A stretch of DNA of 64,000 nucleotides from Nitrospirota bacterium (GCA_963737155.1 CAVTRN010000001.1:352001-416000); one strand, 5' to 3'; shown: positions 2,409 to 59,766, numbered from the stretch's first letter. Made by a program: numbers and translations. The notes: generated from the letters alone by a model not told the origin.

Positions 2409-3380
2409 TTACACCTGTGGTCGTGGATACAGCCCAGCGGCTTTCACAATCCCTTCGATGGCGCTCTCCCACTCGATGGCCTGGATATGAACACCCTTAA
2501 CGCCCGGAGTTTCCAATGCCTGGTGAATAAGCTCTATGGCGATTTTGATGCCTTCCTGCTCCTGCAGTTCGCGCATCTTCTTCTTATCCTCGCCGGCTGC
2601 CGCTTTGGCCTTGTTCATACGGTCGATCAGCTCTTTGGGGACCGACACCCCGGCAACCGAGGAATCCATATACTTGAGCATCATGGCGCTTTTCGGCACA
2701 ATGATGCCTGCAAGGATCGAGGTCCGCTCATGGAGGCCCATGTTCCGGATTTTCGCCATCTGCTCGCGGAAGAGAGTCATATCGTAGATGCCCTGTGTCT
2801 GGATGAAATCAGCTCCGGCATTCACTTTTTTAAGAAGATTGATCGGCCGGAAATCAATGGGGTCGGCCATGGGCGTCCAGGACGCTCCTACAAAAAATTT
2901 CGGGGCTACTTCCAGAGGGTCGCCGCCCTCCTGCTTGCCCTCATCACGCATCTTCTTGAGAATGCCGACGAGCTGGCACGTATCGACATCATAGACATTC
3001 TTCGCCCCGGGATGGCCTTTCAGTCTACCGGCCGAGCTGAACTTCTGGTGGTCGCCGGCGAGGCAAAGACAATTCTTGAGCCCGAGCGCAGCAGCGCCGA
3101 GGAGGTCTGCCTGCATGGCGATGCGGTTCCGGTCACGGCAGGTCATCTGGATCACCGGCTCCAGCCCCTGCTGGAACGCGATGGCGCCGGCAGCGATGCT
3201 CGAAATTCGTACAACCGCAGTCTGGCAGTCCGTAATATTCGCCGCGTCGCAAAAACCCTTGAGCATCTGAGCTTTTTTCACCACTTCATGAGGATCGGCG
3301 CTCATGGGAGGCCCAAGCTCAGCAGTGACCGCGGGTTTGCCGCTGGCGATTACTTTTTCAAGATTGCTTCCGCTTTTCAT
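2409..3380 (-). CDS. metF: Methylenetetrahydrofolate reductase
   Basis: AELGPP, NITD, QMTCRDRNRIAMQADLLGA, KVNAGADFIQTQ motifs; adjacent to metV. Confidence 0.92.
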   Translation of the reverse strand: MKSGSNLEKVIASGKPAVTAELGPPMSADPHEVVKKAQMLKGFCDAANITDCQTAVVRISSIAAGAIAFQQGLEPVIQMTCRDRNRIAMQADLLGAAALGLKNCLCLAGDHQKFSSAGRLKGHPGAKNVYDVDTCQLVGILKKMRDEGKQEGGDPLEVAPKFFVGASWTPMADPIDFRPINLLKKVNAGADFIQTQGIYDMTLFREQMAKIRNMGLHERTSILAGIIVPKSAMMLKYMDSSVAGVSVPKELIDRMNKAKAAAGEDKKKMRELQEQEGIKIAIELIHQALETPGVKGVHIQAIEWESAIEGIVKAAGLYPRPQV

Positions 3381-3526
3381 TCTTTCTTCCCTCCAAAAGG
3401 TCTATCCTAAGAGGACTATGGACCGCTTCTTCATTCACGCTAACGCCGGAAGTCGGCGTCTCGAGGCAGACCCGGAATGACGGGCTGGATAGACATATGG
3501 ACATCCTCTGCCGAACAATTTCTTCA

Positions 3527-4228
3527 CTACTTCCCGGACTTGTCCGCTTCCTTCTCTTCGAACTCCCGTATATGCTCCATGGATATGCGGCGCGGTCCGC
3601 CGTCGCGCGACGTGGACCAGTTCCTTGGCGGCTGGATTTCGGTGAGTCTCTCAAGAGTACCGAGCATCTTCATGCGCTCGACGATCAGGTACCAAACGCA
3701 GTCGATCTCGTTGCTGACTTCGCACTTCCCCTTGTTCGTGCCACCGCAGGGACCGTTCATAAGTGTCTTCGAGCAACGCGCAATGGGGCAGAGGCCGCCG
3801 GTAAGATGCAGGATGCAGTTGCCGCAGCCGGCACAGAGTTCTTTGAAGACGCCGGGCGCTTCTACCGCTCCGTAGAACGAGGTATTGATGCCCGGATAGA
3901 CCGGAATCGTTCCGGTTCGGTCGGACAGAAAATTCACCCCGACCCCGCAGGCCGTTGAGAGAATGAGGTCGTACTTCCTGACCTCATCCATGACTGGCTC
4001 GAAGTACTCGGGCTCGCAGTGGCGCATCACGCCGAGGTGGTTCACCTCCATAGCCTTCCCCTCCTGCGATGCCTTGATTCTGATGAGGGAAGCGATGGTC
4101 TCGGCCTCCTTCTCGCCGCCTGCATGGCAGATGGCCACGCAGGTGTTGCACCCGAATACGAGAACCTTTTTAAAGTCCTTGACCATGGTCCAGATTTCGT
4201 CAATCGGTTTCTGTGATCCTACGATCAT
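3527..4228 (-). CDS. metV: MTHFR small Fe-S/Zn subunit (MetV)
   Basis: GCNTCVAIC, CAGCGNC..CPIARCSKTLMNGPCGG..GKCEV..CVW Cys pattern; directly upstream of metF. Confidence 0.88.
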   Translation of the reverse strand: MIVGSQKPIDEIWTMVKDFKKVLVFGCNTCVAICHAGGEKEAETIASLIRIKASQEGKAMEVNHLGVMRHCEPEYFEPVMDEVRKYDLILSTACGVGVNFLSDRTGTIPVYPGINTSFYGAVEAPGVFKELCAGCGNCILHLTGGLCPIARCSKTLMNGPCGGTNKGKCEVSNEIDCVWYLIVERMKMLGTLERLTEIQPPRNWSTSRDGGPRRISMEHIREFEEKEADKSGK

Positions 4229-4288
4229 AATTCATTACTCCTTCTATAGCGAACTCAAAAATATTATCGCCCTGAAACCGTCCCCGTC

Positions 4289-6382
4289 TTACTTCGTCCT
4301 TAACCCGATTTTCTTCACACGTTCGGAAAAATCTGCGCAAACCGCTGCATAGGAATTCCCGCCATTGTTAGATGCGGAAAGGATCTCGAGACGGCCCGGT
4401 TCGATCGACAGCATGCCGAGCAGTCCCTGAACTCTTTTCACCCTGGCATTCACACGCGGAGCAATGTCCCGATACTTGCATGTTCCGTCATTACAGCGCA
4501 CAATTACCACGCCATCGGCACCGGCTTCAAAGGCTTTCAGCATATCCAGAATATCAATTCTGCTGGTGCAATGCACCGGCACAATCTTCATGTTCGTCGG
4601 CAAATCGAAGCCGAGGATACCGGCGTGATTTGTGCACAGGAGCGCGACAATAACCGGCTCCCGGCGGCTCTCGTCAACCTTTCCGATGCTTGCCGAAAGC
4701 GAGTTCCTGATCTCGCGAACATCATAGCTCACCATGCTGATCGCTTGGGCAGGGCATTCCGGAGCGCAGAGACCGCAGGCCTGGCAGTACTCGGGACGGA
4801 TTTCGGAGTAGGCCTGCACCACCGGCGCGCCGTAGGGGCAAACACGCATACAAGTAAGACAAGCCATACATTTGTTCTTGTCCACGACTGCTCCGCCGCC
4901 GCAGCCGCGGCACCGGCCGGCTTCCTCGAGGGCCTCTTGCTCGGTAAAGCCCTCTTCAAAATGGTCCATGGTTTTAACGCGGACTTCGGGAGCGAGATGT
5001 TTGATCTTGAGCCGTGGCAGCTTGTCGATCTTTTCAACGACGTCGGCCGGCATTGGGGCGATCTTTTCCTTTTCCTGCGTCGGAAGCTTGCCCTCAATTG
5101 ACTCTCCCTGAAGATGGAGATGAATGGCAAGGGCCGAGCGGTGGCCGTTCGCGACAGCTGCAATGGCCGATCCCGGACCGGTAACGACTTCGCCAGCTAC
5201 GAACACGTTCCTGGCGCTGCTCATCTGGGTCGCGGGATTCCACTCAATGCGGCCCCGTTCGTCGACCTTCACGGCGCTGTTTTTCAAGAACGAGAGGTTC
5301 GACATCTGGCCGATCGTGATGATGATTGTATCAGCTTCGAGCAGCATCGTAATATTCGTATCAAAGGTCGGTGCGAACCGCTTGTTCGCATCAAAGACCG
5401 ACACGACCTTCGTGACTTCAAGGCCCTTTACCCGGTCGCCTTCGCGAATAACCGCCTTGGGCCCCCAGCGATAATTGATCTTGATAGCCTCTTCAACAGC
5501 CTCGTCAACTTCCCATTTCCAGGCCGGAATCTCCTGCTCGTTTTCGAGGCAGACCATCTCGACGTTCTGCACGCCGAGCCTGCGGGCCGATCGGGCAACG
5601 TCCATGGCAACGTTTCCGCCGCCAATGACAAGCACTCTCCCACCCAGGGTCGGCTTGCGGTTGAACGCTACGTCTTCGAGGAAAGGAATCGCGAGCAGCA
5701 CTCCGGGTCCCTGCTCTCCGGGAATATTCAAGGCCCGGCTCTGGGACAGACCGATGGCGATCAGCACGGCATCATGTTTTTTCGTAAGGTCGTCAAGCTT
5801 TGCATCCCTGCCGACCTCGAAGTTTGTTTTTACTTCGACGCCTTTTGAAACAACATCGTTGATGTCTTCATTCAAAACTTCCCTCGGAAGCCGGTAGGGC
5901 GGGATCGCGGAAGCGAGCATGCCGCCGAGCATGGGATGACGCTCATAGATCGTGACGCTGTAGCCGAAATCGGCGAGGTCCCGGGCCGCGGTCAGGCCCG
6001 AAGGCCCTGAACCGATGATTCCGATACTTTTGCCCTTCGTTTTCGCGATGAGTCTGCGCTTGGCGCGGCGATAGTCCCTAGATTTCTCTATGGCGAACCG
6101 CTTCAGATGGCGGACCGCCAGGGGCTCGTCGATGCCGCAACGCCTGCAGGACTGCTCGCAGGGATGGTGGCAGATCATGGAGCAGACCGAAGCAATGGGG
6201 TTTACTGACGTGATGACTTCGAACGCTTCAGTATATTTGCCCTTGGCGATCAGTGCCACATAAGCCTGCACATCCGTATGCGCCGGACATGCGGCCCGGC
6301 ACGGCGAATAAGGCCTTGTTTCCTTGATATCGGCGCCATAAGGACGATAGGGTTCAAGAGTGCATATAGTTTCCAATGCCAT
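4289..6382 (-). CDS. Fe-S flavoprotein: GltD/NfnA-like FAD/NAD(P)H oxidoreductase + 2x[4Fe-4S] ferredoxin + C-terminal MvhD/FlpD domain
   Basis: PCRAACP, CSMICHHPCEQSC, IIGSGPSGL, IGGGNVAMD; CMACLTCMRVCP and CQACGLCAPECP; HCTSRID..GADGVVIVRCNDGTCKY. Start placed at ATG 6382 (AGGAG RBS). Confidence 0.85.
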   Translation of the reverse strand: MALETICTLEPYRPYGADIKETRPYSPCRAACPAHTDVQAYVALIAKGKYTEAFEVITSVNPIASVCSMICHHPCEQSCRRCGIDEPLAVRHLKRFAIEKSRDYRRAKRRLIAKTKGKSIGIIGSGPSGLTAARDLADFGYSVTIYERHPMLGGMLASAIPPYRLPREVLNEDINDVVSKGVEVKTNFEVGRDAKLDDLTKKHDAVLIAIGLSQSRALNIPGEQGPGVLLAIPFLEDVAFNRKPTLGGRVLVIGGGNVAMDVARSARRLGVQNVEMVCLENEQEIPAWKWEVDEAVEEAIKINYRWGPKAVIREGDRVKGLEVTKVVSVFDANKRFAPTFDTNITMLLEADTIIITIGQMSNLSFLKNSAVKVDERGRIEWNPATQMSSARNVFVAGEVVTGPGSAIAAVANGHRSALAIHLHLQGESIEGKLPTQEKEKIAPMPADVVEKIDKLPRLKIKHLAPEVRVKTMDHFEEGFTEQEALEEAGRCRGCGGGAVVDKNKCMACLTCMRVCPYGAPVVQAYSEIRPEYCQACGLCAPECPAQAISMVSYDVREIRNSLSASIGKVDESRREPVIVALLCTNHAGILGFDLPTNMKIVPVHCTSRIDILDMLKAFEAGADGVVIVRCNDGTCKYRDIAPRVNARVKRVQGLLGMLSIEPGRLEILSASNNGGNSYAAVCADFSERVKKIGLRTK

Positions 6383-46952: not shown

Positions 46953-48560
46953 TTACTGTTCGAAGCGTGTCACGAAGGCCCCGATGAATTTCATGTGGCG
47001 AACATAGTCCTCGAAAGGGACTTCTTTTACAATACCGCCGCCCGGCCGGCCCGCGTGATCCTTGTCACCGGAGGCATGAATCAGGTATGGTTTATCCGTT
47101 TTTATGTGGACGATTGACAGATGGGCAACGATTTCCTCGCCTGAGCGTTTTTCCGGGTCCTTAACCCAGTACAGGATATCACCGTCCAGGAGCTGCTTCT
47201 GGACGGATCTGCTGAGAAGCACTTTTTTTGGCAAAATATCTACTGTAGCCCTGCCGCGCGAACCGGGAATCGTTTCAACCGTTCCGAGCGTGGCAGTGAT
47301 GTTTTTCCCCCACTTCCCGCTGAACACCATGTCTTCGCCATACTGGTAACGTGTATCATAGTTGGTCACAAGGCCGTCCGCAAGCATGCCCTTCGTGGTA
47401 AACCGGAGCGCCAGCGCCTGATCGATTGCCTGACCAGGCGTGCTGCTCCGCGCCAGCTCGACGGAACGGAACGTATGGTACATGCAGTCGATCTTCTCAT
47501 CGGCCACAATACGATTGGTGCGAACATAGAGGCCAAGGGGGTCGGGGTCGTAGGGTGTGCCGATGAAACGGCCCGCCCAGTAGACGATGCGCCTGTTGAA
47601 GGGAAGTTGGGCAACCCGCGCCTGTGCCATAAGGATCTCATCGGCGGTCATCTGGGAGGGTTGTTTGCCTTCATCGGGATCGGCGCCGATGATCCGGACC
47701 CCGTACTGAAACGTCTTGGCATAGCGACGCTCCCGGATGCCGACGATTTGAACTTTTCCCTTGCGCGCAGCCTGCATGAATCGCCCGTCGCCGAGATACA
47801 GCCCCTCTTGACCGCCGGAAAAGACCAGGATATCTCCGGGCACAAGGTCCTTCTTCGATACGTGCTCTCCGGCTTCTTTCAGTTCGCTACGATCTTTTAC
47901 CGCGGGAAATCCGTGAATTCGATAGACAATGGAGATCAGCCCACTGATGTCGATGCCCTGGGCAGTCATGCCGCCAGCAAGGTACTGAACGCCCCGAAAG
48001 CGTAGCGCAGTGTTCGCTATCTCATCGGGCCTGGTGTCGTTCACAATAGGATCTGAGGACTTCACCGGCATTGTGTCGGTCCTGTTGATGATGGCCACGG
48101 AGCGGTCTGGAAACTGGACCTTCAAGCCGTTCTGCGTTTGTTCGAGTACAGGGAGATGCGTTCCGGCAAAGAGAGGGATTTTTTGATTGCCGGTTTTGTC
48201 CAAGATCAGCGCCTCGGTCTTCGTCGCGGAAATGACGATCCATTGGCGTTCGGAGCTCAGATAATGTTTGCCCTTATTTCGGGGAATCGAAACCGCTTCC
48301 TGCTGTATCCACCCCTCCAGGTTCCCCTGGTCCGAGATCGATATCCGGTAATGGTTGTCCTGCTTGCCCAGAATGAGTACCTCGTCTCCCATGAGCACCT
48401 GCGTTTCAAGCCGGGACTTGGGCAGCGGTTCCTCATGGACATTGGCGAGGGGAGCGGATACGATGCCGACGCTACCGTTCAGCGGCAGCTCGGCCTGAAC
48501 GGCAGAAGAAAAAAGCAGGACCGCAAACCAGGAAAGCGCTATGGCGAGATGTTTTTTCAT
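46953..48560 (-). CDS. Exported SH3-like + NlpC/P60-like + DUF1460 (amidase-like) cell-wall protein
   Basis: Signal peptide, ETQVLMG SH3-like segment, Y.AGG...GIDISGL (NlpC/P60-like), FIGTPY..IDCMY..HLSIV..LIHAS (DUF1460). Confidence 0.75.
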   Translation of the reverse strand: MKKHLAIALSWFAVLLFSSAVQAELPLNGSVGIVSAPLANVHEEPLPKSRLETQVLMGDEVLILGKQDNHYRISISDQGNLEGWIQQEAVSIPRNKGKHYLSSERQWIVISATKTEALILDKTGNQKIPLFAGTHLPVLEQTQNGLKVQFPDRSVAIINRTDTMPVKSSDPIVNDTRPDEIANTALRFRGVQYLAGGMTAQGIDISGLISIVYRIHGFPAVKDRSELKEAGEHVSKKDLVPGDILVFSGGQEGLYLGDGRFMQAARKGKVQIVGIRERRYAKTFQYGVRIIGADPDEGKQPSQMTADEILMAQARVAQLPFNRRIVYWAGRFIGTPYDPDPLGLYVRTNRIVADEKIDCMYHTFRSVELARSSTPGQAIDQALALRFTTKGMLADGLVTNYDTRYQYGEDMVFSGKWGKNITATLGTVETIPGSRGRATVDILPKKVLLSRSVQKQLLDGDILYWVKDPEKRSGEEIVAHLSIVHIKTDKPYLIHASGDKDHAGRPGGGIVKEVPFEDYVRHMKFIGAFVTRFEQ

Positions 48561-48622
48561 CGGGTAAATCAGGAAAACGGAGTGAACTGCAATGTGAACG
48601 CGTATTGTTCAATGGAAAAAGA

Positions 48623-48651
48623 TGGTGCCGAAGGGGGGACTCGAACCCCCA
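48623..48651 (-). repeat. Duplicated tRNA (Leu-type) 3' end = att site of an integrated element
   Basis: Minus strand GGGGGTTCGAGTCCCCCCTTCGGCACCA (T-arm + acceptor + CCA) with no 5' half of a tRNA; coincides with a sharp drop in GC. Confidence 0.85.
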
Positions 48652-48833
48652 TTGCCCACCCTCGCGTTTTCAATTTAATTCAATAGTTACTCGTGTTTTG
48701 GGGGTAATAAAAAGCCCTTTTTTTGGTGCATAAGTGGTACACAAGCGTCATTTATACCATATTAAACCTTCACACTTCAACTATAAAATTTCCCACTGTC
48801 CTATACTTCCTCAAAATTAATTATTCGATGGCC

Positions 48834-48861
48834 TTGACAATAACTGCAATATCCCTATAAT
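48834..48861 (+). promoter_or_regulatory. Consensus sigma70 promoter
   Basis: TTGACA (48834-39), 16 nt, TATAAT (48856-61). Confidence 0.75.
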
Positions 48862-48944
48862 CGGCCTAATCAGTCCTAAATAATTCCAGCCAGCTTGGGA
48901 TTTTAGAAATAGTTTGACTTCCCTCTTTCAGGGGACAACCCAAC

Positions 48945-49073
48945 ATGGCTTTGCAATCAACGCTTCGACTCGATAAGCATCGAGTAAGTGCGATTTGCCC
49001 CAACCATAATTATGTCAGAAAAAGAAACAGGTACGAGTCTTCGTTTTCGTACTCTAATGAGAAACGGACATAA
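48945..49073 (+). CDS. Candidate 42-aa small ORF upstream of the radical SAM gene
   Basis: GGGGA RBS; MALQSTLRLDKHRVSAICPNHNYVRKRNRYESSFSYSNEKRT*; below the ORF-track cutoff. Confidence 0.35.
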   Translation: MALQSTLRLDKHRVSAICPNHNYVRKRNRYESSFSYSNEKRT

Positions 49074-49113
49074 CCTTCCGACGTTTTAGTAAACAGCACA
49101 GTCAGCCTACCCT

Positions 49114-50469
49114 ATGAAACGAATTATGCTCATTAACTCCCCGTTATTTGAGGAGAAGCATGATTTAAACAAGGAGGATTATCTCCCACCCTTGGGCTTG
49201 GGTATTATTGCCACAGAATTAATGAAACATGACAATATTCAAGTTAAACTGATAGATGCCATAGCTGAAAATAAAACCGTTACGGAAATAATAGCTGCAA
49301 TATCCGAGTCTCAATCAGATTTCGTTGGAATAAATATTTTTACTACAAATTTCCGACACGTAAAAGAAATTATTGAGAAAACGAAAATAAAAACACACTT
49401 CATCATAGGTGGCATATCTACCCGGTCGCTTTATCATGAAATATTTAAATGGAAGACGCAGAATGACATAGACATTGTATACGGAGATGGCGAACTCGTA
49501 ACTCGTGATATCGTATATTCTTGCGTTAAAGAGAAACCGTCTAAGCAAAGTGGTACGATGAGATTCTTCGTCATTTCTAAAGAATCTTCCTACCATGTGC
49601 AGGATATTTCGCAAAAGGAAATTGAAAGAAAGCTTTTTCAAAATGAACCGTATTTAAATTGCTATGGTCGCCCAGAAGTAAGTATTTATACGAGCAGAGG
49701 TTGCATATATAATTGTGCCTACTGCGTGGCGGCACATGATATTAATCATCAACTAGGCGTTCGCATAAAAAAGGTTCCCCACGTAATTTCAGAGTTGACC
49801 GGAATTAAAGCACTCTACCCCAGGCTCGAATATATCCGAGTGTTGGATGATTTATTTTTACGAAGCGGCCAAAGCTTCAGTGATGCAAATACCATTTTTA
49901 GTCAATTTAATTTCTTATGGCGTGCAATGTGCCATATAAAGCCATTATATGCTGTTGACATAAATAATCTACTCAAGCTTCATTCTAATGGCTGCAAGGA
50001 ATTGTTTGTAGGAATTGAATCTGGCTCAAGGCGTATTCTCAGTAAGATTCATAAAGAGACCGATATTAATGTGATTTTAGAGGCGACTGAAAAAGTCTTT
50101 CAATCAAGGATTAATTTAAAAGGTTATTTTATATGTGGCTTCCCTTCCGAAACTCTTCAAGATTTAGAAGATACTATTGGGTTAGCAGAAAAAATAAAGC
50201 AACAGGCTGATAAGTACCAGGTCAATTTTAGAACCAGCACATTTCAGTTTAGGCCATATTATGGGACTGAATTGTACAATGAGATACTCGATAAATCCCC
50301 CTACAAAGAAGCTGCATCTATTCTTTTCGAGACGAAACAATCAGACTTGCTGAATGGAGACACTTCACGAAAATCGTTTGACTTTGAAAGCGGTAATTAC
50401 TCATCAGTCAGTGACTCTGTATTACAAAATTGCATAGGGAGGATGAATGCTTTAAATGGTACTGTTTAG
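49114..50469 (+). CDS. Cobalamin-binding radical SAM protein
   Basis: PPLGL..A, DFVGIN, IIGG (B12-binding domain); TSRGCIYNCAYC (CxxxCxxC); DDLF, GIESGS, GFPSET. Confidence 0.9.
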   Translation: MKRIMLINSPLFEEKHDLNKEDYLPPLGLGIIATELMKHDNIQVKLIDAIAENKTVTEIIAAISESQSDFVGINIFTTNFRHVKEIIEKTKIKTHFIIGGISTRSLYHEIFKWKTQNDIDIVYGDGELVTRDIVYSCVKEKPSKQSGTMRFFVISKESSYHVQDISQKEIERKLFQNEPYLNCYGRPEVSIYTSRGCIYNCAYCVAAHDINHQLGVRIKKVPHVISELTGIKALYPRLEYIRVLDDLFLRSGQSFSDANTIFSQFNFLWRAMCHIKPLYAVDINNLLKLHSNGCKELFVGIESGSRRILSKIHKETDINVILEATEKVFQSRINLKGYFICGFPSETLQDLEDTIGLAEKIKQQADKYQVNFRTSTFQFRPYYGTELYNEILDKSPYKEAASILFETKQSDLLNGDTSRKSFDFESGNYSSVSDSVLQNCIGRMNALNGTV

Positions 50470-51028
50470 TACAATAAAAAAATGTAGGACGTGTGATTTG
50501 TGTCGCAACCAGCGACCGTTACTACAATTGAAAACAAAAGCCGATGTCTTTTGGGTAGGTTTATCTGCTGTGAGGACGGATGTCTCAAAGGATGTGCCAT
50601 TATCTGCAAATACGAGAACTGGCAAATTAGTCGATGATATCGAAACCCTGCTTAACGACATATCTTTTTACAGAACAAATATAGTTAAATGTCTTCCATT
50701 AAAAAATACAAAGATACGGTATCCGTCAATAGAGGAAATGGAAAGGTGCTATAAACATTTATCAAAGGAAATTGACTATATGACACCCAAAATTATATTG
50801 CTCTTAGGAAAGCAAGTTGCATCTTTTATTTTAAAATCGAAGGGAATAAAAGAATTTGAGCTTGATGAAGGGTTTAATTATAAGCCAATTTTTATTGATG
50901 GAATTTATTATTTGCCTGTACATCACCCATCCTACGTACTCATTTATAAGAGAAAGTATTTACAAAATTATACAGCCAAGATAAAAAACTTTTTGACGCA
51001 TTATCATTGTCAAGAAGCTATAGCCTAA
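50456..51028 (+). CDS. Uracil-DNA glycosylase superfamily protein (family 4/5-like, Fe-S Cys set)
   Basis: CRTCDLC, TNIVKCLP, R.PS.EEM..C, PKIILLLG, HHPSY; overlaps the rSAM stop. Confidence 0.85.
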   Translation: MVLFSTIKKCRTCDLCRNQRPLLQLKTKADVFWVGLSAVRTDVSKDVPLSANTRTGKLVDDIETLLNDISFYRTNIVKCLPLKNTKIRYPSIEEMERCYKHLSKEIDYMTPKIILLLGKQVASFILKSKGIKEFELDEGFNYKPIFIDGIYYLPVHHPSYVLIYKRKYLQNYTAKIKNFLTHYHCQEAIA

Positions 51029-51096
51029 TAGGCCATTGCGAATGTCCGTAATTAATCTGAATAGACAGAGTATTGAGACAAACAAAAAGTATCATA

Positions 51097-51137
51097 TTGT
51101 ATCTCCTGAATTACAAGGTGTATAATTATTTCAGGAG
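51097..51137 (+). promoter_or_regulatory. Promoter with inverted-repeat operator for the TA pair
   Basis: TTGTAT-18-TATAAT; CTCCTGAA (51103-10) and TTCAGGAG (51130-37) form an inverted repeat bracketing the -10 and covering the RBS. Confidence 0.55.
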
Positions 51138-51146
51138 TTTTGAATT

Positions 51147-51839
51147 ATGAATACATCCATATTTGAACTTATTCGATTTATCGTTTGGCGTGCGACAGAG
51201 GCAAGAGGCGGTCTTTCGACCATTGCTCTTGTTAAATATTTATATCTCGCAGACTTATTCTACGCTGAGGAAACAGGTGGAAAAACGCTGACGGGGTTAC
51301 CCTGGATTTTCTACCAGTATGGCCCTTATTGTACAGAAGGTTTTCGAGTGATTGATGATGCCGTAACGCATGGTTTTATCAATGCTAAAAATTATCAAAG
51401 CAAATATGAAGTGGACAAGGAATATAAGTGGTATTCGTCATTAGATGAAAATGAGCCTCAGTTAGATGTGCCGGTCCACGTTTGGGCATCGTTGTCCAGT
51501 GCTATCGGTAGGTTTGAAGATATACGGGATTTAATGAGTTACGTTTATTTCGAAACTGCTCCAATGCAACAAGCTAAGGAGAGGGCTCCTCTCGATTTTT
51601 CGAATGCCAGAAAAATCAAACCTGAAAATCCCATTGTAATGAATAAGCTTTCTGCAAAAAAGATAAGAAAGGCTCAAGAAATACTGAACAAAATACGTGA
51701 AACTCGCACAAGGAATAGTGTTGTATCGTATGCCGGACCATCACCCGTTTATGACGATAGTTATTATGAATTTGCAAAAACTCTTGATGATGAATGCGAA
51801 GCTCCAAAATTGACTGGCAAACTAATCTTCTTTGATTAA
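51147..51839 (+). CDS. Panacea-domain (DUF4065/SocA-like) antitoxin
   Basis: LVKYLYLADL..GKTLTG..W..YQYGPY Panacea signature, VY.T.PM. Confidence 0.78.
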   Translation: MNTSIFELIRFIVWRATEARGGLSTIALVKYLYLADLFYAEETGGKTLTGLPWIFYQYGPYCTEGFRVIDDAVTHGFINAKNYQSKYEVDKEYKWYSSLDENEPQLDVPVHVWASLSSAIGRFEDIRDLMSYVYFETAPMQQAKERAPLDFSNARKIKPENPIVMNKLSAKKIRKAQEILNKIRETRTRNSVVSYAGPSPVYDDSYYEFAKTLDDECEAPKLTGKLIFFD

Positions 51840-51862
51840 ATAATAGCTAAAAGCGAGACTTC

Positions 51863-52627
51863 ATGGGGCTAAGTCAAATCATCCAACCGTTTTACAGAAC
51901 GCTCACAGAAGAAGAAAGTGCTACTCCCCCCGTACAAGGTCAAATATGTTTAATTCCAAGCATATTCCCTGACACGATTCCACAAGTAATCGAGGCTCAT
52001 AGGCACGACAAGAGGGACCACTCCGAGGCTGATTTTACGATTCGTAATCTTAAAGAAACTGATTATGGGCCGAAAGATACCCTGCCTATCAAACACCTGA
52101 AAATAAAATCTGGGGAGGAATTAATAGCAGTTGGAAGCAAGCGAAGACCTGCTATTATTATACGTCCCGATACATATATATCAGCAGCGGTAGAGAAAAT
52201 GCTTCCAAGCATGGGGAAAAGACATTTGCAACAAGCAGACACGTTTGTTGCCTTGCCAATGTTTTCAGCCCAAGTTGATGGCTTTGGAACTGGTTTCCCC
52301 GCTAAAATGATTTGCCGCATTAAGGTTTTAATGTATCCGCAATATTATTACATGCCACCTTCCACAGACAGAGCTATTCCGATTAAGGAAGGAGTTATTC
52401 GGCTCGATAGAATTCAAGTTATAGTCTCTCGAAATCCAGCAGTGCTTTTGCCCAAGAAGTATGCAATCTCAGAAAATGCATTAGAAATTTTACTATGCCA
52501 ATTAATGCGATGGCTCAACCTGCCGATGAACCCGGATATAAAGAAAGATTACGACACTATTCTTGAATTGCTGGGCGAAACCTTACCTGCTGATGTATGT
52601 GCAGAAGATAAAGCTGAAAACAAATAG
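51863..52627 (+). CDS. Putative toxin with PemK/MazF-like motifs
   Basis: GQIC.IP, KRRPAIII, VALPMFS, VIRLDRIQVI; directly downstream of the Panacea gene. Confidence 0.55.
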   Translation: MGLSQIIQPFYRTLTEEESATPPVQGQICLIPSIFPDTIPQVIEAHRHDKRDHSEADFTIRNLKETDYGPKDTLPIKHLKIKSGEELIAVGSKRRPAIIIRPDTYISAAVEKMLPSMGKRHLQQADTFVALPMFSAQVDGFGTGFPAKMICRIKVLMYPQYYYMPPSTDRAIPIKEGVIRLDRIQVIVSRNPAVLLPKKYAISENALEILLCQLMRWLNLPMNPDIKKDYDTILELLGETLPADVCAEDKAENK

Positions 52628-52818: not shown

Positions 52819-53532
52819 TTGCAGTCACTGATATCCATCAGCTCAAATGAAAAAATTCGGAGTGAGCATATGATATGTACTTTTGACTATGATGGTGGAC
52901 TAATGCATTTTAAGAACCTTGATGCTCTTTACAATTTTCATGTATTTTCTCTTGCGTGGCGATTTAAAGACCTTGCGACAACGGACCCTTGGACAATGAG
53001 ATTGAATGCATTTAAGGAAAAAGACCCAAAAGCTGTAAATGCCGCGTGCTCCGTAATGCCTTACGCTGTTTCCAAACGTAACTGGCCTCAAAGAACATTT
53101 ACTATGGTATCGGCAATTCCATCTACAGAGGAAGTTCTTCCAAAAGCCAGCGGCCTGTTTCGATTGGGTAAGGCAATTTCATCAGCCGTCTCTTGGGAGT
53201 GGAAACCTGAAGCAGTCAATAAAAAACCACATAGACCCTTACACACTATCTACAACGCCCCTGAAAGAGCCGCAGAGATAGCGGGAAAGTATTCTATTGT
53301 TCATTCGATTACTACCGATTATGTCTGTATCCTCGATGACTTAATCACACGTGGCGACACTATGGCGGACATTGTACGAGCAATTAAGGAACATAATCAC
53401 AGAGTCATGGTTTTTGGCCTTGTCCTTGGCAAATCAGAAACTTACTCGTACGCAATAGACAATGGACATGAAATAAGTAATGACCATGTGCCAAGTGAAT
53501 ATGCAACCATGTGGGATAAAAATTATAAATGA
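52819..53532 (+). CDS. Phosphoribosyltransferase (ComF-like)
   Basis: AIPST, VCILDDLITRGDT PRPP-binding loop; true start may be ATG 52870 or 52903. Confidence 0.85.
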   Translation: MQSLISISSNEKIRSEHMICTFDYDGGLMHFKNLDALYNFHVFSLAWRFKDLATTDPWTMRLNAFKEKDPKAVNAACSVMPYAVSKRNWPQRTFTMVSAIPSTEEVLPKASGLFRLGKAISSAVSWEWKPEAVNKKPHRPLHTIYNAPERAAEIAGKYSIVHSITTDYVCILDDLITRGDTMADIVRAIKEHNHRVMVFGLVLGKSETYSYAIDNGHEISNDHVPSEYATMWDKNYK

Positions 53533-54476
53533 TTATGCAAAATCTGAGTCAAGATACTTATAGACTTTTAACATGGTTATGCCTCCCAAAAGTGGGAGTT
53601 GTGACCATCAGAAACATCGCTATGACTAGTAAGGTTCATTCATGGGACATAAATTTACTTAAAGAAAATAAAGTTTTGCCCAATTTTGACGATGGTCTAC
53701 TTAATGAAGCAAGAACAAAAGCTGATAATATATTAGATTCGTGCCGTGAGCACGAAATAGCAGTTATCTCTATTCTTGATGAGAGTTATCCTCCACTTCT
53801 AAAAAATATAAAGGATGCTCCCCCTCTCTTGTACGTTAAAGGCTCAATGAAATCACTTCACTCAAAATGTGCTGCTGTAGTGGGTACACGAAAGGCAAGT
53901 GAAGCAGGGCTAAAAATTGCGGGCAAGGTTGCTCATTCACTAGCTGAAAATGGTTATTCTATTGTAAGTGGACTTGCGCTTGGTATTGATACTGCTTCTC
54001 ATAAGGGGGTTCTCGAAATCTCTGGTATTACCATAGCCATACTTGCTCATGGTTTACACACAATTGCACCTTCATCAAATAAGGCCTTAGCGCAAGAAAT
54101 CCTCGACAAAAATGGGGCATTAATTTCTGAGCATCCACCAGGAACTCCTGCTCGTCCACCTGAGTTTGTTAGACGCAATAGAATTCAGAGCGGAATGTCG
54201 CTTTTCTCTGTGATTATTGAAACAGGTGAGGTTGGAGGCACAATTTATCAAGCTCAATTTACTAAGACCCAAGGGAAAGAAGTGTATGTCATTATTCCAC
54301 CAAATGACAATCCCATATATAATCAATTCAATTATTCTGGTGGCTGTATGATAATCGATAAAATGGGCGGGATAAAAGTTACTTCTACGATGGACTTACT
54401 AAACAAATTAAACGTGACAACTAATCAAGATAATTCTAATAACAATACACAAGACCAATTAGGATTTAATCTATGA
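53529..54476 (+). CDS. dprA: DprA/Smf-family protein (ShosA-like)
   Basis: YPPLLKNIKDAPPLLYVKG, AVVGTR, VSGLALGID, FVRRNRIQSG; no C-terminal winged helix apparent. Confidence 0.92.
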   Translation: MIMQNLSQDTYRLLTWLCLPKVGVVTIRNIAMTSKVHSWDINLLKENKVLPNFDDGLLNEARTKADNILDSCREHEIAVISILDESYPPLLKNIKDAPPLLYVKGSMKSLHSKCAAVVGTRKASEAGLKIAGKVAHSLAENGYSIVSGLALGIDTASHKGVLEISGITIAILAHGLHTIAPSSNKALAQEILDKNGALISEHPPGTPARPPEFVRRNRIQSGMSLFSVIIETGEVGGTIYQAQFTKTQGKEVYVIIPPNDNPIYNQFNYSGGCMIIDKMGGIKVTSTMDLLNKLNVTTNQDNSNNNTQDQLGFNL

Positions 54477-54955
54477 AAGTCGCAGGCATTCTGTTAGACT
54501 TAGATGGGACTCTTGTTGATACGAATGAGCTTGATGCATTGCGCCATAAGAAGGACTGGAGAGGATGTGTTGCTGGACTAAACAAGACCGTGGTATATGA
54601 TGGAATAAGTGATTTACTACAAAGAGCTTCTGAAAAAGGAGTCTGTATTGGAATAGTCACTACAAGTGTCTCATATTACGCTCAAGCTGTACTACGTCAT
54701 CATAATCTCAAATATGATGTCCTTGTTGCATATCATGACGCTAAACCAAAGCCAGCTCCAGACCCATACCTTCTTGCTATAAAAAAACTGAGCCTTACTA
54801 CGAACACTGTAATTGGAATTGGAGATACGACTGAAGATGCATTATCGCTCAATGCTGCCAAAATTATCGCAATAGGTGCTGGTTGGAGCAGCGTCCTTCA
54901 GAAGAATGCATCATGGGATAAGATTGCCGCTCATCCATCCGAAATTACTTTGTAA
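54473..54955 (+). CDS. HAD-family hydrolase
   Basis: LLDLDGTLVDT, IVTT, KPAPDP, GIGDT..D; ATGA overlap with dprA. Confidence 0.92.
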   Translation: MKVAGILLDLDGTLVDTNELDALRHKKDWRGCVAGLNKTVVYDGISDLLQRASEKGVCIGIVTTSVSYYAQAVLRHHNLKYDVLVAYHDAKPKPAPDPYLLAIKKLSLTTNTVIGIGDTTEDALSLNAAKIIAIGAGWSSVLQKNASWDKIAAHPSEITL

Positions 54956-57183: not shown

Positions 57184-57573
57184 ATGCTAAACAAAGTTCT
57201 CATTGTCGATGATTCCGAGCCGCTCCACCAGAATTACAAGGTTTCTCTGAAGCGGTACAAGTGCGAGGTAATCACTGCATTAAGCCGAGAGGATGGGCTG
57301 AAAATGCTGACCGAGAACTCCGGAGTGAGTTTAATTTTTGTCGATATGAACATGTCACTGTCTCGAATTAGCGGGATTGAATTTATTAAGAAGGTTAAGG
57401 AACAGGAAGCCTATGCCAACATCCCGGTTGTTATCGTAACTACGAGAGGTAAGAGCTATACAGAGGATGCCCGTAATTGGGCAGATGGGAATTTAGTAAA
57501 AGCGTTTACGTCAATTGAACTTCATTCAGTAGTCGAGAAGCTGTTTCCTGAAGCTGTGTCTGCTTTAATCTGA
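57184..57573 (+). CDS. Orphan CheY-like response regulator
   Basis: VLIVDDS, FVDMNM, VTT, VKAF. Confidence 0.85.
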   Translation: MLNKVLIVDDSEPLHQNYKVSLKRYKCEVITALSREDGLKMLTENSGVSLIFVDMNMSLSRISGIEFIKKVKEQEAYANIPVVIVTTRGKSYTEDARNWADGNLVKAFTSIELHSVVEKLFPEAVSALI

Positions 57574-58020: not shown

Positions 58021-59766
58021 TCAAAAGAGTCTACCAGACTCTACCATGAATGCTTGTCTTTGTTTTTCTGATAATGCTTCATTTAATGCTATAAGCTGTT
58101 GGCGAAAATGTACTGCATCTTGAGGGCTCTTTCTTATAATAACGAATTTGGCAATTTCAATCTTCTCCATTTTATGCCTATCCACAGATAATGGGAATGA
58201 TGCGTCTACTGGTTTTCTGAGGATTAAAAATCCTTTTTTGCTTGCCTCAGTAATTACCTCTGTCGATAAGTATCGCTCAATTCCCGTAAAACTTACATCA
58301 AGCTCTGTATTTACATATGATGTTGACCACTGTAAGACATCTGATGTAGGGTGTGAACTTAATAATTGCCTGATTTCGTTTATCACTTTAGATGCCGATT
58401 CATTCCAATCAATTAAAACAAAAACTGGTGCCTTTAATGAACGACTCTTCAAAATATCATTGTTTATTCTTAAATATTTTTTTAGCCCCTCGACACCTTC
58501 GAGAGTACCACATGATATGGTTTTAATATCTTGTATTTCCCAAGGACAAGCAATTTTTAATAAAGAATAGGCAAAACTTACGAGCAGCTTGTCTGATAGA
58601 CCTTCAACGATTAACAATGGTTTAGGTGCCCCAAATAATAGTGGAGGAACATAAGCCGATACACCAAGTTGAACTGACTCGTCAAGCAATTTTCTTGCTT
58701 CTTTTTCTTCAACGGCTGTTTTTCCGCTCCTTAATTGGCAAAGCATTCCATGCTGCGCATACCTAACGAATACATCGCTATGTGTTGTGCAAAAGGTCTG
58801 AAATCTAGATATGGTTGATTTACCCGTATCAGACAGAAGATTTGCAACGCTATATTCTAAATCCTTATGCAAAAAAGATTCTGGTTCTTCGATTGCCCAA
58901 ATAGTAGCTTGGTGCCATCCAAACTTCGATGAAAATCTGGAGTCAAGATATTTCAAAACCAATAAAGTCAACAAGCTCTGTATGCCTGAACCGTGAAATA
59001 AGGCGTTAATATTTTCGCTCCCATGGACCTGCAACCTCGGAGCAAAACTAAATAGCAACTCTCCCAAATCAGACGGTATTGATAAATCAGCATTGTCAAT
59101 ATCAGGCACAGCTTTTTTTAGCTCAGACATGATAGGATTAACAAATTCTTTTGACAATTTTCTAAGCTCAGAAAATATTTGTTCTTGCTGTTGTTTGGCT
59201 ACACTTTTTGACCTATGCAATTTAGATAGTAGTTCTGTCTGAATCGCACGTTGTTCGTCTTGCAAAATGGTTGATGGATGAATGTGATTCGGTATGTATC
59301 TAAATTTTATTAATGCCAGAAACTGTCTTATGCGGTCTTCATCACCTGCAATTGCTATCATTTCATCATCATTGCCTTTTTTATATTGAATCGCCAACTT
59401 ATAATTCTTCTCTAAAGGTTCTGACGGCAAAGTCCAAGTCTTCGTAATGGAAAAATCTGTTCCCAACAAATCTTCTAGACCCTTTTTAACAGTTCTTGGA
59501 AAACTGAAGTTATCTGGTAATTTAAAGTGAATTGTCACGCTTATTCGTTTCTTCTTACTTCGTGATGGATTATGAAAATCCTCGTACATATTAAGGGGCT
59601 TGTTAGGTTCTGTTTCATTATTAAAAAACAAGTTGAGTGCTCTCAGAATGTTGGACTTGCCACTGTTATTCTGCCCAATGATTGGAAGATAACCTGACGA
59701 TACTGGGATATTTGCCGATGAAATCGACCTAAAGTCCTTTATTACTATTTTTTCAATAATTTTCAT
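58021..59766 (-). CDS. OLD-family ABC-ATPase + TOPRIM nuclease
   Basis: FRSI, GQNNSGKS (Walker A), HGSG, IEEPESFLH (Walker B), TTHS, TOPRIM IVEGLSD..LIDWN. Confidence 0.85.
   Translation of the reverse strand: MKIIEKIVIKDFRSISSANIPVSSGYLPIIGQNNSGKSNILRALNLFFNNETEPNKPLNMYEDFHNPSRSKKKRISVTIHFKLPDNFSFPRTVKKGLEDLLGTDFSITKTWTLPSEPLEKNYKLAIQYKKGNDDEMIAIAGDEDRIRQFLALIKFRYIPNHIHPSTILQDEQRAIQTELLSKLHRSKSVAKQQQEQIFSELRKLSKEFVNPIMSELKKAVPDIDNADLSIPSDLGELLFSFAPRLQVHGSENINALFHGSGIQSLLTLLVLKYLDSRFSSKFGWHQATIWAIEEPESFLHKDLEYSVANLLSDTGKSTISRFQTFCTTHSDVFVRYAQHGMLCQLRSGKTAVEEKEARKLLDESVQLGVSAYVPPLLFGAPKPLLIVEGLSDKLLVSFAYSLLKIACPWEIQDIKTISCGTLEGVEGLKKYLRINNDILKSRSLKAPVFVLIDWNESASKVINEIRQLLSSHPTSDVLQWSTSYVNTELDVSFTGIERYLSTEVITEASKKGFLILRKPVDASFPLSVDRHKMEKIEIAKFVIIRKSPQDAVHFRQQLIALNEALSEKQRQAFMVESGRLF

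Follow-up and report, generated by a model that had tools for sequence, protein, structure and literature searches.

A described system close to the locus reported here is a two-gene operon in which UdgX (COG1573, TIGR03914), an iron-sulfur (Fe-S) protein of the family-4 branch of the uracil-DNA glycosylase (UDG) superfamily, is encoded with a radical S-adenosylmethionine (SAM) protein (COG4277, TIGR03915/TIGR03916). In its available text, PMC8565304 describes a UDG and radical SAM operon, found in Bacteroidetes and others with a broad distribution, as a putative SOS-regulated base-excision repair system. We have analyzed a gene pair of the same outline in 64,000 nucleotides of DNA from a Nitrospirota bacterium (GCA_963737155.1, CAVTRN010000001.1:352001-416000; this whole stretch is called the window). 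The radical SAM protein of this pair has a B12-binding-type domain, unlike that of the cassette, and TIGR03915 and TIGR03916 are absent from its 22 NCBIfam matches. The UDG-like protein scores 25.4 bits with the UdgX model TIGR03914, where the cut-off is 189.95. Whereas the cassette is broadly distributed, the pair is rare cargo of mobile elements. The original prediction, made from the window alone, had set the pair apart from the cassette, and the scores bear this out.

Both halves of the pair have better-known relatives. The class B radical SAM enzymes MgmA, TsrM, CysS, TokK and OxsB have the same order of a Rossmann-type B12 domain followed by a barrel, and the same CxxxCxxC motif. Most of the nearest folds are C-methylases, while OxsB contracts the ring of a deoxyadenosine nucleotide; it acts on dAMP, dADP and dATP and rearranges them (PMC7074753, available portion). 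None of these enzymes is paired with a UDG, unlike the radical SAM protein described here. In the field of defence, viperins and Ophion (radical SAM), Brig1 and Brig3 (UDG-superfamily glycosylases that defend against modified-base phages) and systems with a thymidylate synthase and a deoxynucleoside monophosphate (dNMP) kinase, validated in E. coli in the DefensePredictor study, share a logic directed against phage DNA synthesis and are borne by islands and mobile elements (10.1101/2025.09.30.679545, PMC13160076, PMC13092281). As far as the accessible text of these sources goes, none of these systems joins a B12-type radical SAM protein to a protein of glycosylase fold; Brig and Ophion were compared by description. 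UDG is also listed among the domains of predicted, unvalidated defence systems in the available part of PMC13092281. Our literature search, in which paper supplements were not covered, found no description of a B12 radical SAM and UDG pair and no paper on UdgX together with a radical SAM protein. The main text of Payne et al. 2024 (10.1101/2024.01.29.577857) has no mention of the pair by the terms searched.

We give a probability of roughly one half to the following reading. The pair would be a mobile conflict module, mostly behind an RmrA-type gate. In it, the radical SAM protein would convert a pyrimidine nucleotide or base into an altered form, which the UDG-like protein would excise or read. 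Most likely, such a module would be anti-phage or anti-mobile-element and would act on thymine/uracil-type deoxynucleotides.

Linkage of the two genes

The two genes lie on the same strand, and their open reading frames (ORFs) overlap by 14 nt (Table 1). Both proteins have hundreds of homologues at about 50% identity. An alignment of the UDG-like protein was searched against 185,579 species genomes and gave 189 confirmed stretches, of which the best 80 were used as genome loci. A radical SAM match is present in 74 of these 80. It is directly upstream on the same strand in 71, divergent in two and a remnant in one. The reverse search, with an alignment of the radical SAM protein, gave 80 metagenome loci. 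All 71 that were testable (at least 500 nt of downstream sequence) contain the UDG-like gene, in 68 of them next to the radical SAM gene and on its strand, in three convergent with it; the start of the gene is visible in four of the nine loci with shorter downstream sequence. The pairwise identities of the two proteins correlate over 110 loci (Mantel r 0.70, with 0 of 999 permutations as high), although host kinship contributes to this value. The pairing is almost obligate. The original prediction had proposed a two-gene module, and co-occurrence is very strong in both directions, with the two proteins diverging in step. A predicted complex of the two proteins (score 0.00, mark 0.32) is uninformative either way.

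Six of the 80 genome loci have no radical SAM match. One of these, L045, is at a contig edge. The other five (L009, L026, L032, L056 and L068) have a UDG-like gene without a radical SAM gene despite room upstream. In L009 (7883-8806) the protein has 307 residues, including an N-terminal extension of about 170 residues. The gene follows a HEPN/RES gene in L026, and a HATPase and STAS-like (DUF4325) pair in L032.

These solo genes bear on an explanation in which the UDG-like protein alone is the effector. Like Brig, it would remove a modified base from phage DNA (5-hydroxymethyluracil, uracil, 5-hydroxymethylcytosine and so on), and the radical SAM protein would be an auxiliary that supplies a cofactor or signal or disarms an inhibitor. 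Brig1 and Brig3 are a precedent (PMC13160076, text available in part), the solo genes stand beside HEPN/RES or HATPase and STAS-like genes, and the Glu to Leu and Phe to Leu changes in the pocket, described below, suggest a substrate other than uracil. We nevertheless consider it quite improbable. The radical SAM gene, the larger and costlier of the two, is hardly dispensable, because it is never found without its partner in the 71 testable loci and the two proteins co-diverge. The link to a dTMP kinase (see below) would also be left unexplained.

In the window, the pair is preceded by a promoter-like site, TTGACA-16-TATAAT. It is the only complete consensus match within 48500-51300, a region in which promoter-like sites occur at chance level (nine found, 9.5 expected). 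The site and the leader of about 250 nt that follows it are conserved in the alignment with the closest relative, L008. The original prediction had read the locus as a consensus promoter, a B12-type radical SAM gene and an overlapping UDG-superfamily gene, and the promoter match, the ORFs and the Pfam matches agree with it. Five metagenome DNA runs share part of 48800-51100, and no RNA run was among those listed for this stretch. A small hairpin, CTCGA-TAAGCA-TCGAG, is present in the leader. A riboswitch or other RNA in the leader was considered and rejected: no Rfam match was found at E ≤ 0.1 across 40000-64000, leader included, and the fold z-score of the leader (-1.81) is unremarkable.

Table 1. 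Positions of features in the window and of related operons on Streptomyces plasmids (L082, L086, L087)
Feature	Position	Strand	Description
36-bp direct repeat, island border	48617..48652	.	copy of tRNA-Leu(GAG) 3' end
Sigma-70-type promoter-like site TTGACA-16-TATAAT	48834..48861	+	12/12 consensus positions
Leader, promoter to start codon	48862..49113	+	~250 nt, conserved with L008
B12-binding-type radical SAM gene	49114..50469	+	451 aa, class-B architecture
Fe-S UDG-superfamily gene	50456..51028	+	190 aa, family-4/UdgX branch
ShosTA-like unit	52819-54955		phosphoribosyltransferase (PRTase)-like gene, ShosA/DprA, HAD-family hydrolase
Stand-alone response-regulator receiver protein	57184-57573
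OLD-, Gabija-A- or AbiEii-type ATPase	58024-59766	opposite to receiver gene	581 aa, AAA_15/AAA_21/DUF2813
Four-gene operon, Streptomyces plasmid	L082 5136-8413		hypothetical gene of ~275 aa first
Four-gene operon, Streptomyces plasmid	L086 4121-7509		hypothetical gene of ~275 aa first
Four-gene operon, Streptomyces plasmid	L087 4083-7530		hypothetical gene of ~275 aa first

Architecture of the two proteins

The radical SAM protein matches the Pfam B12-binding domain (PF02310) over residues 23-131, with 46.8 bits against a cut-off of 32.1, and Radical_SAM over residues 191-357, with 37.5 bits against 29.5. The C197-x3-C201-x2-C204 motif is shared without exception by the 30 aligned homologues. 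None of the 22 NCBIfam models matched reaches its cut-off, and the best of them, HpnJ, gives 95 bits against 578. The AlphaFold model (mean predicted local distance difference test score, pLDDT, 91.0) has the class-B layout. Its nearest solved folds are MgmA, OxsB, AprD4, TsrM, MiaB, CysS and TokK, with template-modelling (TM) scores of 0.56-0.65 and identities of 13-18%. A sequence search of the PDB agrees with this (9ccb, E 4e-17; AprD4, 5e-11; OxsB, 6e-6). No viperin-type model matched the protein, and a PADLOC scan gave the candidate PDC-M51A alone.

The UDG-like protein belongs to the UDG superfamily by PF03167 (50.8 bits, cut-off 24.3). It does not reach the curated cut-offs for family 4, with 60.8 bits against 125.3 for TIGR00758 and 63.6 against 250 for NF040953, nor that for UdgX. 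By these curated models it is a distinct clade of the family-4/UdgX branch and a member of neither group. Its structural model (pLDDT 93.9) is closest in Foldseek to the family-4 UDGs 4zbx/4zby, 1l9g, 1vk2 and 1ui0/1ui1 (TM-scores 0.74-0.77), followed by UdgX (0.71-0.73). The family-4 enzymes, such as those of Sulfolobus tokodaii (4zbx), Thermotoga maritima (1l9g) and Thermus thermophilus (1ui0), thus have the same fold and are also the best PDB sequence matches (E 2e-17).

All 30 aligned homologues have C10, C13, C79, C98, N75 and H156-H157-P158-S159. In the profile alignment the four cysteines coincide with the Fe-S cysteines of 4zbx and 1l9g. Also kept with respect to these two enzymes are the Asn in N-x-V-K-C and the HPS motif plus a Leu downstream of it; the HPS and L162, which is at least 90% conserved, align with the HPSYLL motif of 1l9g. 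Other places differ. Motif A, which reads GE(A/G)PG and carries the catalytic Glu in family-4 UDGs, is VGLSA in the window and GLS(A/S) in all 110 relatives compared; where 4zbx has G-E-A-P-G, the aligned residues are G-L-S-A-V. The Phe of the family-4 P-F-V motif is replaced by Leu49. The loop before the third helix, shorter in the family-4 enzymes, is longer by three residues and contains an invariant I-R-Y-P (K-I-R-Y-P in the window). In UdgX, the loop in this place would be the KRRIH loop, which holds the crosslinking His. Its scores below the curated cut-offs and a radical SAM gene partner, present at nearly all of its loci (74 of 80), also set the UDG-like protein apart from the family-4 enzymes. 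The first description of these motifs, with the four Fe-S cysteines and HPS kept and motif A changed to VGLSA from GE(A/G)PG, is exact.

The loss of the catalytic Glu in a protein that keeps the wedge Leu, the Asn and the His would suit a binder or flipper of bases. The two proteins might then form a complex on DNA, in which the UDG-like protein flips or exchanges a base and presents a pyrimidine to the B12 radical SAM enzyme for methylation or another alteration within the DNA. The product would not poison an invader but mark or protect the element's own DNA, in an epigenetic or anti-restriction role. The near-obligate pairing and the 14-nt overlap suggest one-to-one co-production, the constitutive-looking expression in the window suits a modification system, and integrative and conjugative elements carry the pair. 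Against this, neither protein has a sequence-specificity domain in Pfam and NCBIfam scans. The dTMP kinase, together with the NUDIX and MazG genes linked to a sister clade, favours free nucleotides over DNA, and the RmrA-type gate of most relatives is a feature more usual in toxic effectors that are induced. On balance we regard a DNA-level complex as rather unlikely.

The nucleotide clue and a proposed function

Accessory genes were counted by ORF clustering of 160 loci plus the window. The commonest is an upstream gene for a helix-turn-helix (HTH_3) and Peptidase_M78 protein (PADLOC RmrA, E 4e-57), found in 90 of the 160 loci. RmrA is the HTH and M78 peptidase component of RosmerTA (RmrT/RmrA); it is absent from the operon in the window, which has the consensus promoter instead. 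A 172-residue partner is found in 81 loci and is PIN/DUF3368-like by language-model features (score 0.96), which we treat as a lead. A membrane protein of about 260 residues occurs in 57 loci; three N-terminal transmembrane segments and a PLD-like-fold domain are leads of the same kind. A dTMP kinase (TIGR00041, 111 bits, cut-off 83) is present in 25 loci. Upstream sequence of 2.5 kb or more is available in 107 loci, of which the regulator, PIN-like and membrane proteins occur together in 39, the regulator and PIN-like protein alone in 25, the kinase only in 14, the bare pair as in the window in 12, and other mixtures in 17.

The kinase also appears with more distant relatives. Radical SAM proteins of 25-28% identity are encoded on 12 Streptomyces or Kitasatospora plasmids, and in three of three Streptomyces plasmid loci inspected the gene order is hypothetical, radical SAM, tmk, NUDIX or MazG. 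The hypothetical protein shows no similarity to the membrane protein that accompanies the pair (best E 0.04) and has no transmembrane segments. Its gene content gives this four-gene operon the look of a pathway for modified nucleotides. The standard phage hypermodification route to a modified deoxynucleoside triphosphate combines a pyrophosphatase, a nucleotide-modifying enzyme and a dNMP kinase. The operon is probably captured in part by the PADLOC candidate PDC-M51. PDC-M51A matches the radical SAM family near full length, although weakly, as distant relatives (window, E 2.8e-10; L047, 1.4e-13). PDC-M51B matches the pair-linked kinases with E 9e-14 and those of the Streptomyces plasmids with E 1e-12. 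PDC-M51 has no UDG component; the window has only the weak A match and no kinase in its operon. PADLOC gave no match for the Streptomyces radical SAM protein, and our literature search found no published paper that names PDC-M51. The view that the pair is no named system stands, with no PADLOC match for the UDG-like protein and only the weak PDC-M51A match for its partner.

Since the family is linked to dTMP kinase, NUDIX and MazG genes and the UDG-like protein keeps the residues that read the uracil ring, the sequences suggest that the system acts on a deoxynucleotide of the thymine/uracil type. The kinase linkage sharpens, and does not contradict, the original idea that a nucleobase or nucleotide is modified.

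We propose the following mechanism. The B12-type radical SAM enzyme would alter a pyrimidine deoxynucleotide of the dUMP/dTMP kind, or the same base in DNA. C-methylation would be the likeliest reaction, because it is the commonest in the B12 radical SAM class. The operon's own dTMP kinase, or elsewhere a host kinase, would drive the product towards the triphosphate, and replicating DNA, chiefly that of the invader, would incorporate it. The UDG-like Fe-S protein would then recognize and excise the altered base; it has kept the Asn that recognizes the base, the motif-B His and the wedge Leu, and has lost the family-4 catalytic Glu and the stacking Phe. The resulting abasic sites may stall replication of the invader, or excision may serve to clean the host's own DNA. 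In most relatives the upstream RmrA-type HTH-metallopeptidase, with its PIN-like partner, probably gates expression.

The original reading as a candidate defence module stands in part. The gene content, the motifs, the near-obligate linkage, the mobility and the defence-like context are observed; the substrate, the chemistry, the glycosylase activity, the role against phages and the write-then-excise mechanism are what we infer from them.

Several observations weigh against the conflict module. With motif A altered, the UDG-like protein could bind without cutting. Family-5 enzymes, which are active, are likewise not known to have an acidic residue in motif A. A B12-binding-type domain is no proof of cobalamin use, and AprD4, among the nearest folds, has such a domain and is not known to contain cobalamin. 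The UDG-like protein may work alone, because five loci with room upstream contain it without a radical SAM gene. It has no match in PADLOC. Because the copy in the window has a consensus promoter and no regulator, steady expression of the bare pair must, to judge from the sequence, be tolerated, which is an ill fit with indiscriminate self-poisoning. Such tolerance favours a substrate or trigger that depends on the phage, or a UDG-like protein that safeguards the host. The linked kinase is present in only 25 of the 160 loci, and it might be a housekeeping copy: in two genomes (G042 and G043) it is the sole strong dTMP kinase match. We doubt this, because the upstream neighbours of the linked kinase vary. 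The sampled genes that flank the pair are, finally, mixed and include housekeeping functions (see below).

In the 3.4-Mb Chitinophagaceae genome G041, which carries L047 and has no linked kinase, TIGR00041 and PF02223 give a best E of 0.001 and nothing strong. These models may miss some housekeeping thymidylate kinases of this group.

A more specific form of the chemistry is possible, and we put it forward only tentatively. The radical SAM enzyme might make a C-alkylated thymine/uracil-type deoxynucleotide (methylated, for example, on the 5-methyl group or at C6), which would enter DNA through the nucleotide pool or by base exchange at the UDG-like protein. Base exchange might proceed through a UdgX-like covalent intermediate at the invariant I-R-Y-P loop, with the UDG-like protein as a dedicated reader or eraser. 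If so, a write-then-excise cycle of a radical-made base would underlie a defence or DNA-marking system for the first time.

The conflict module would extend known kinds, namely radical SAM and UDG cassettes and the nucleotide-chemistry and glycosylase defences, with a real chance of new chemistry. If the proposal is true, at least eight bacterial phyla would possess an immune or conflict module not yet described, and this module would join two recent, separate ideas, altered-nucleotide defence and base-excision defence. Cobalamin-dependent radical chemistry would be added to the known means of attacking or marking DNA, and the UDG superfamily would gain a new substrate class. A function would also be at hand for a large orphan clade of B12 radical SAM proteins and for its Streptomyces-plasmid cousins linked to dTMP kinase, NUDIX and MazG. 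The glycosylase might serve as a tool for detecting a new modified base.

Mobility, the island and neighbouring genes

Carriers of the pair are spread over at least eight bacterial phyla, and cultured gut and soil bacteria are among them. Roseburia inulinivorans DSM 16841 (L069), Blautia sp. HCP3S3_C4 (L067), Chryseolinea sp. H1M3-3 (L010), Croceitalea sp. MTPC5 (L040) and Flavitalea sp. BT771 (L075) are cultured carriers of versions with three to five genes. The carriers include Bacteroidota, which make up the majority, and also Bacillota, several classes of proteobacteria, Campylobacterota, Desulfobacterota, Nitrospirota and Ignavibacteriota. None of 40 relatives of the source genome (G000) has a comparable radical SAM match; the partial matches in one of them (G005) are other radical SAM proteins. 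Of 401 genomes sampled from the phylum to which L047 belongs, only the centre genome itself has the radical SAM family. In the outer neighbourhood of the pair, mobile-element genes recur: tyrosine integrase in 16 loci, HTH_17 in 12, TraG in seven, and relaxase and serine recombinase in six each. Of the 82 loci that span 12 kb or more, 25 have at least one of these genes. The system is thinly and unevenly distributed and often lies on integrative or conjugative elements.

A phage origin was rejected. The 2.9 million contigs of IMG/VR contain one confirmed relative, on a contig with the kinase, radical SAM and UDG genes together. In GenBank phages, 32 records matched, all below 60% identity (best 32.9%), and these are distant UDGs only.

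For the wider surroundings, a random 134 of 419 dereplicated flanking ORFs were scanned with PADLOC and Pfam, and the 25 commonest families were listed. This list is dominated by redundant GajB/UvrD models that come from two ORFs. Conflict and mobile genes in the sample include integrases, HipA, HEPN/RES, ArdC and restriction-modification genes; Hsp70, urocanase, trehalase and fatty-acid synthesis genes represent housekeeping. KwaA and KwaB (Kiwa) adjoin the pair in four loci. Together with the RmrA-type gene in 90 of 160 loci and ShosTA in the window, this suggests a defence-like context.

The flanks also bear on small-molecule biosynthesis, in which the pair would make a nucleoside-analogue antibiotic or a cofactor, destined for export or metabolism, and have no role in genetic conflict in the cell. 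OxsB is among the nearest folds, and a membrane protein accompanies the pair in 57 loci; the B12 radical SAM enzymes OxsB and AlbB make nucleoside antibiotics from deoxyadenosine nucleotides (PMC7074753, as far as its text is available). No biosynthetic-cluster genes, however, recur around the pair in the flanks examined. The flanking genes are mobile-element, toxin-antitoxin, restriction-modification or ordinary genes, and location in a natural-product cluster, which the original prediction had held up as a sign against its own reading, was not found. A partner with a DNA-glycosylase fold and a conserved DNA wedge would be out of place in such a pathway, and the membrane protein, with its three predicted helices and PLD-like-fold domain, does not look like a transporter (leads only). 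We think biosynthesis very improbable.

Rarity and mobility are relevant to another alternative, a mobile DNA-repair cassette that deals with a pyrimidine lesion by base excision or direct reversal, in the manner of the COG1573-COG4277 operon or spore photoproduct lyase. HTH-Peptidase_M78 (ImmA/IrrE-type) regulators are often DNA-damage-responsive, which counts in its favour. The UDG fold and the predicted Fe-S cluster are those of repair enzymes, and the putative SOS-regulated operon introduced at the outset is a parallel (PMC8565304, available text). Both proteins, however, fall under the cut-offs of the models for the known cassette, and the radical SAM protein is of a different, B12-type class. 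A rare and patchy pair on mobile elements is unlike housekeeping repair genes, and neighbours such as Kiwa, toxin-antitoxin and ShosTA fit conflict better. Repair is therefore unlikely in our view. If the pair is a repair cassette after all, it would be a new lesion-specific pathway on mobile elements.

In the window, the pair is the outermost (first) cargo of a tRNA-integrated island. This is because the GC content falls near 48.7-49 kb from values of about 0.49-0.56 to 0.32-0.45, a 36-bp repeat at this border has its other copy inside tRNA-Leu(GAG), and an integrase adjoins that tRNA. The island is about 48 kb long, of low GC content, and inserted in tRNA-Leu(GAG). The full tRNA gene lies about 48 kb downstream, beyond the window, with the repeat copy inside it at G000:C1:448667. 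The window has one exact copy of the 28-nt core of the repeat and the genome has three; identity spans 36 bp. ARAGORN found no tRNA in the window, where the tRNA-like stretch is the 36-bp repeat alone. Beside the tRNA, at the far end of the island, L172 (G000:C1:443500-449200) encodes a tyrosine integrase and an N6/N4 DNA methylase at 2478-5147. The GC shift, the repeat and this integrase confirm the initial placement of the pair as the first cargo unit, and the toxin-antitoxin, ShosTA-like and OLD-type neighbours named with it were also recovered. These are a SocA/Panacea-domain gene (E 3e-7), a ShosTA-like unit and an AAA_15/DUF2813 ATPase. In the ShosTA-like unit the ShosA/DprA gene is a strong match (E 4e-71), the PRTase-like gene has only weak ShosT and PsyrT matches (E 4.5e-4 and 1.9e-4), and the start of the HAD-family hydrolase gene overlaps the end of the DprA gene. 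No Toprim domain is among the matches of the ATPase listed at E ≤ 0.001. A receiver protein is also encoded in this region (Table 1).

The far-end integrase is split into two abutting ORFs, an arm-binding/SAM-like N-terminal part and then the catalytic domain, and may be frameshifted. In L008 (10001-10568), from a Nitrospirota metagenome-assembled genome, the UDG-like gene likewise reads as two ORFs, of 98 and 96 residues; a frameshift, a pseudogene or an assembly error is possible. The SocA/Panacea gene and the next gene, which encodes 254 residues of unassigned family (window 51147-52627), accompany the pair in its two closest relatives, L001 (1268-2769) and L008, which suggests a four-gene block conserved in the sub-lineage of the window, L001 and L008.

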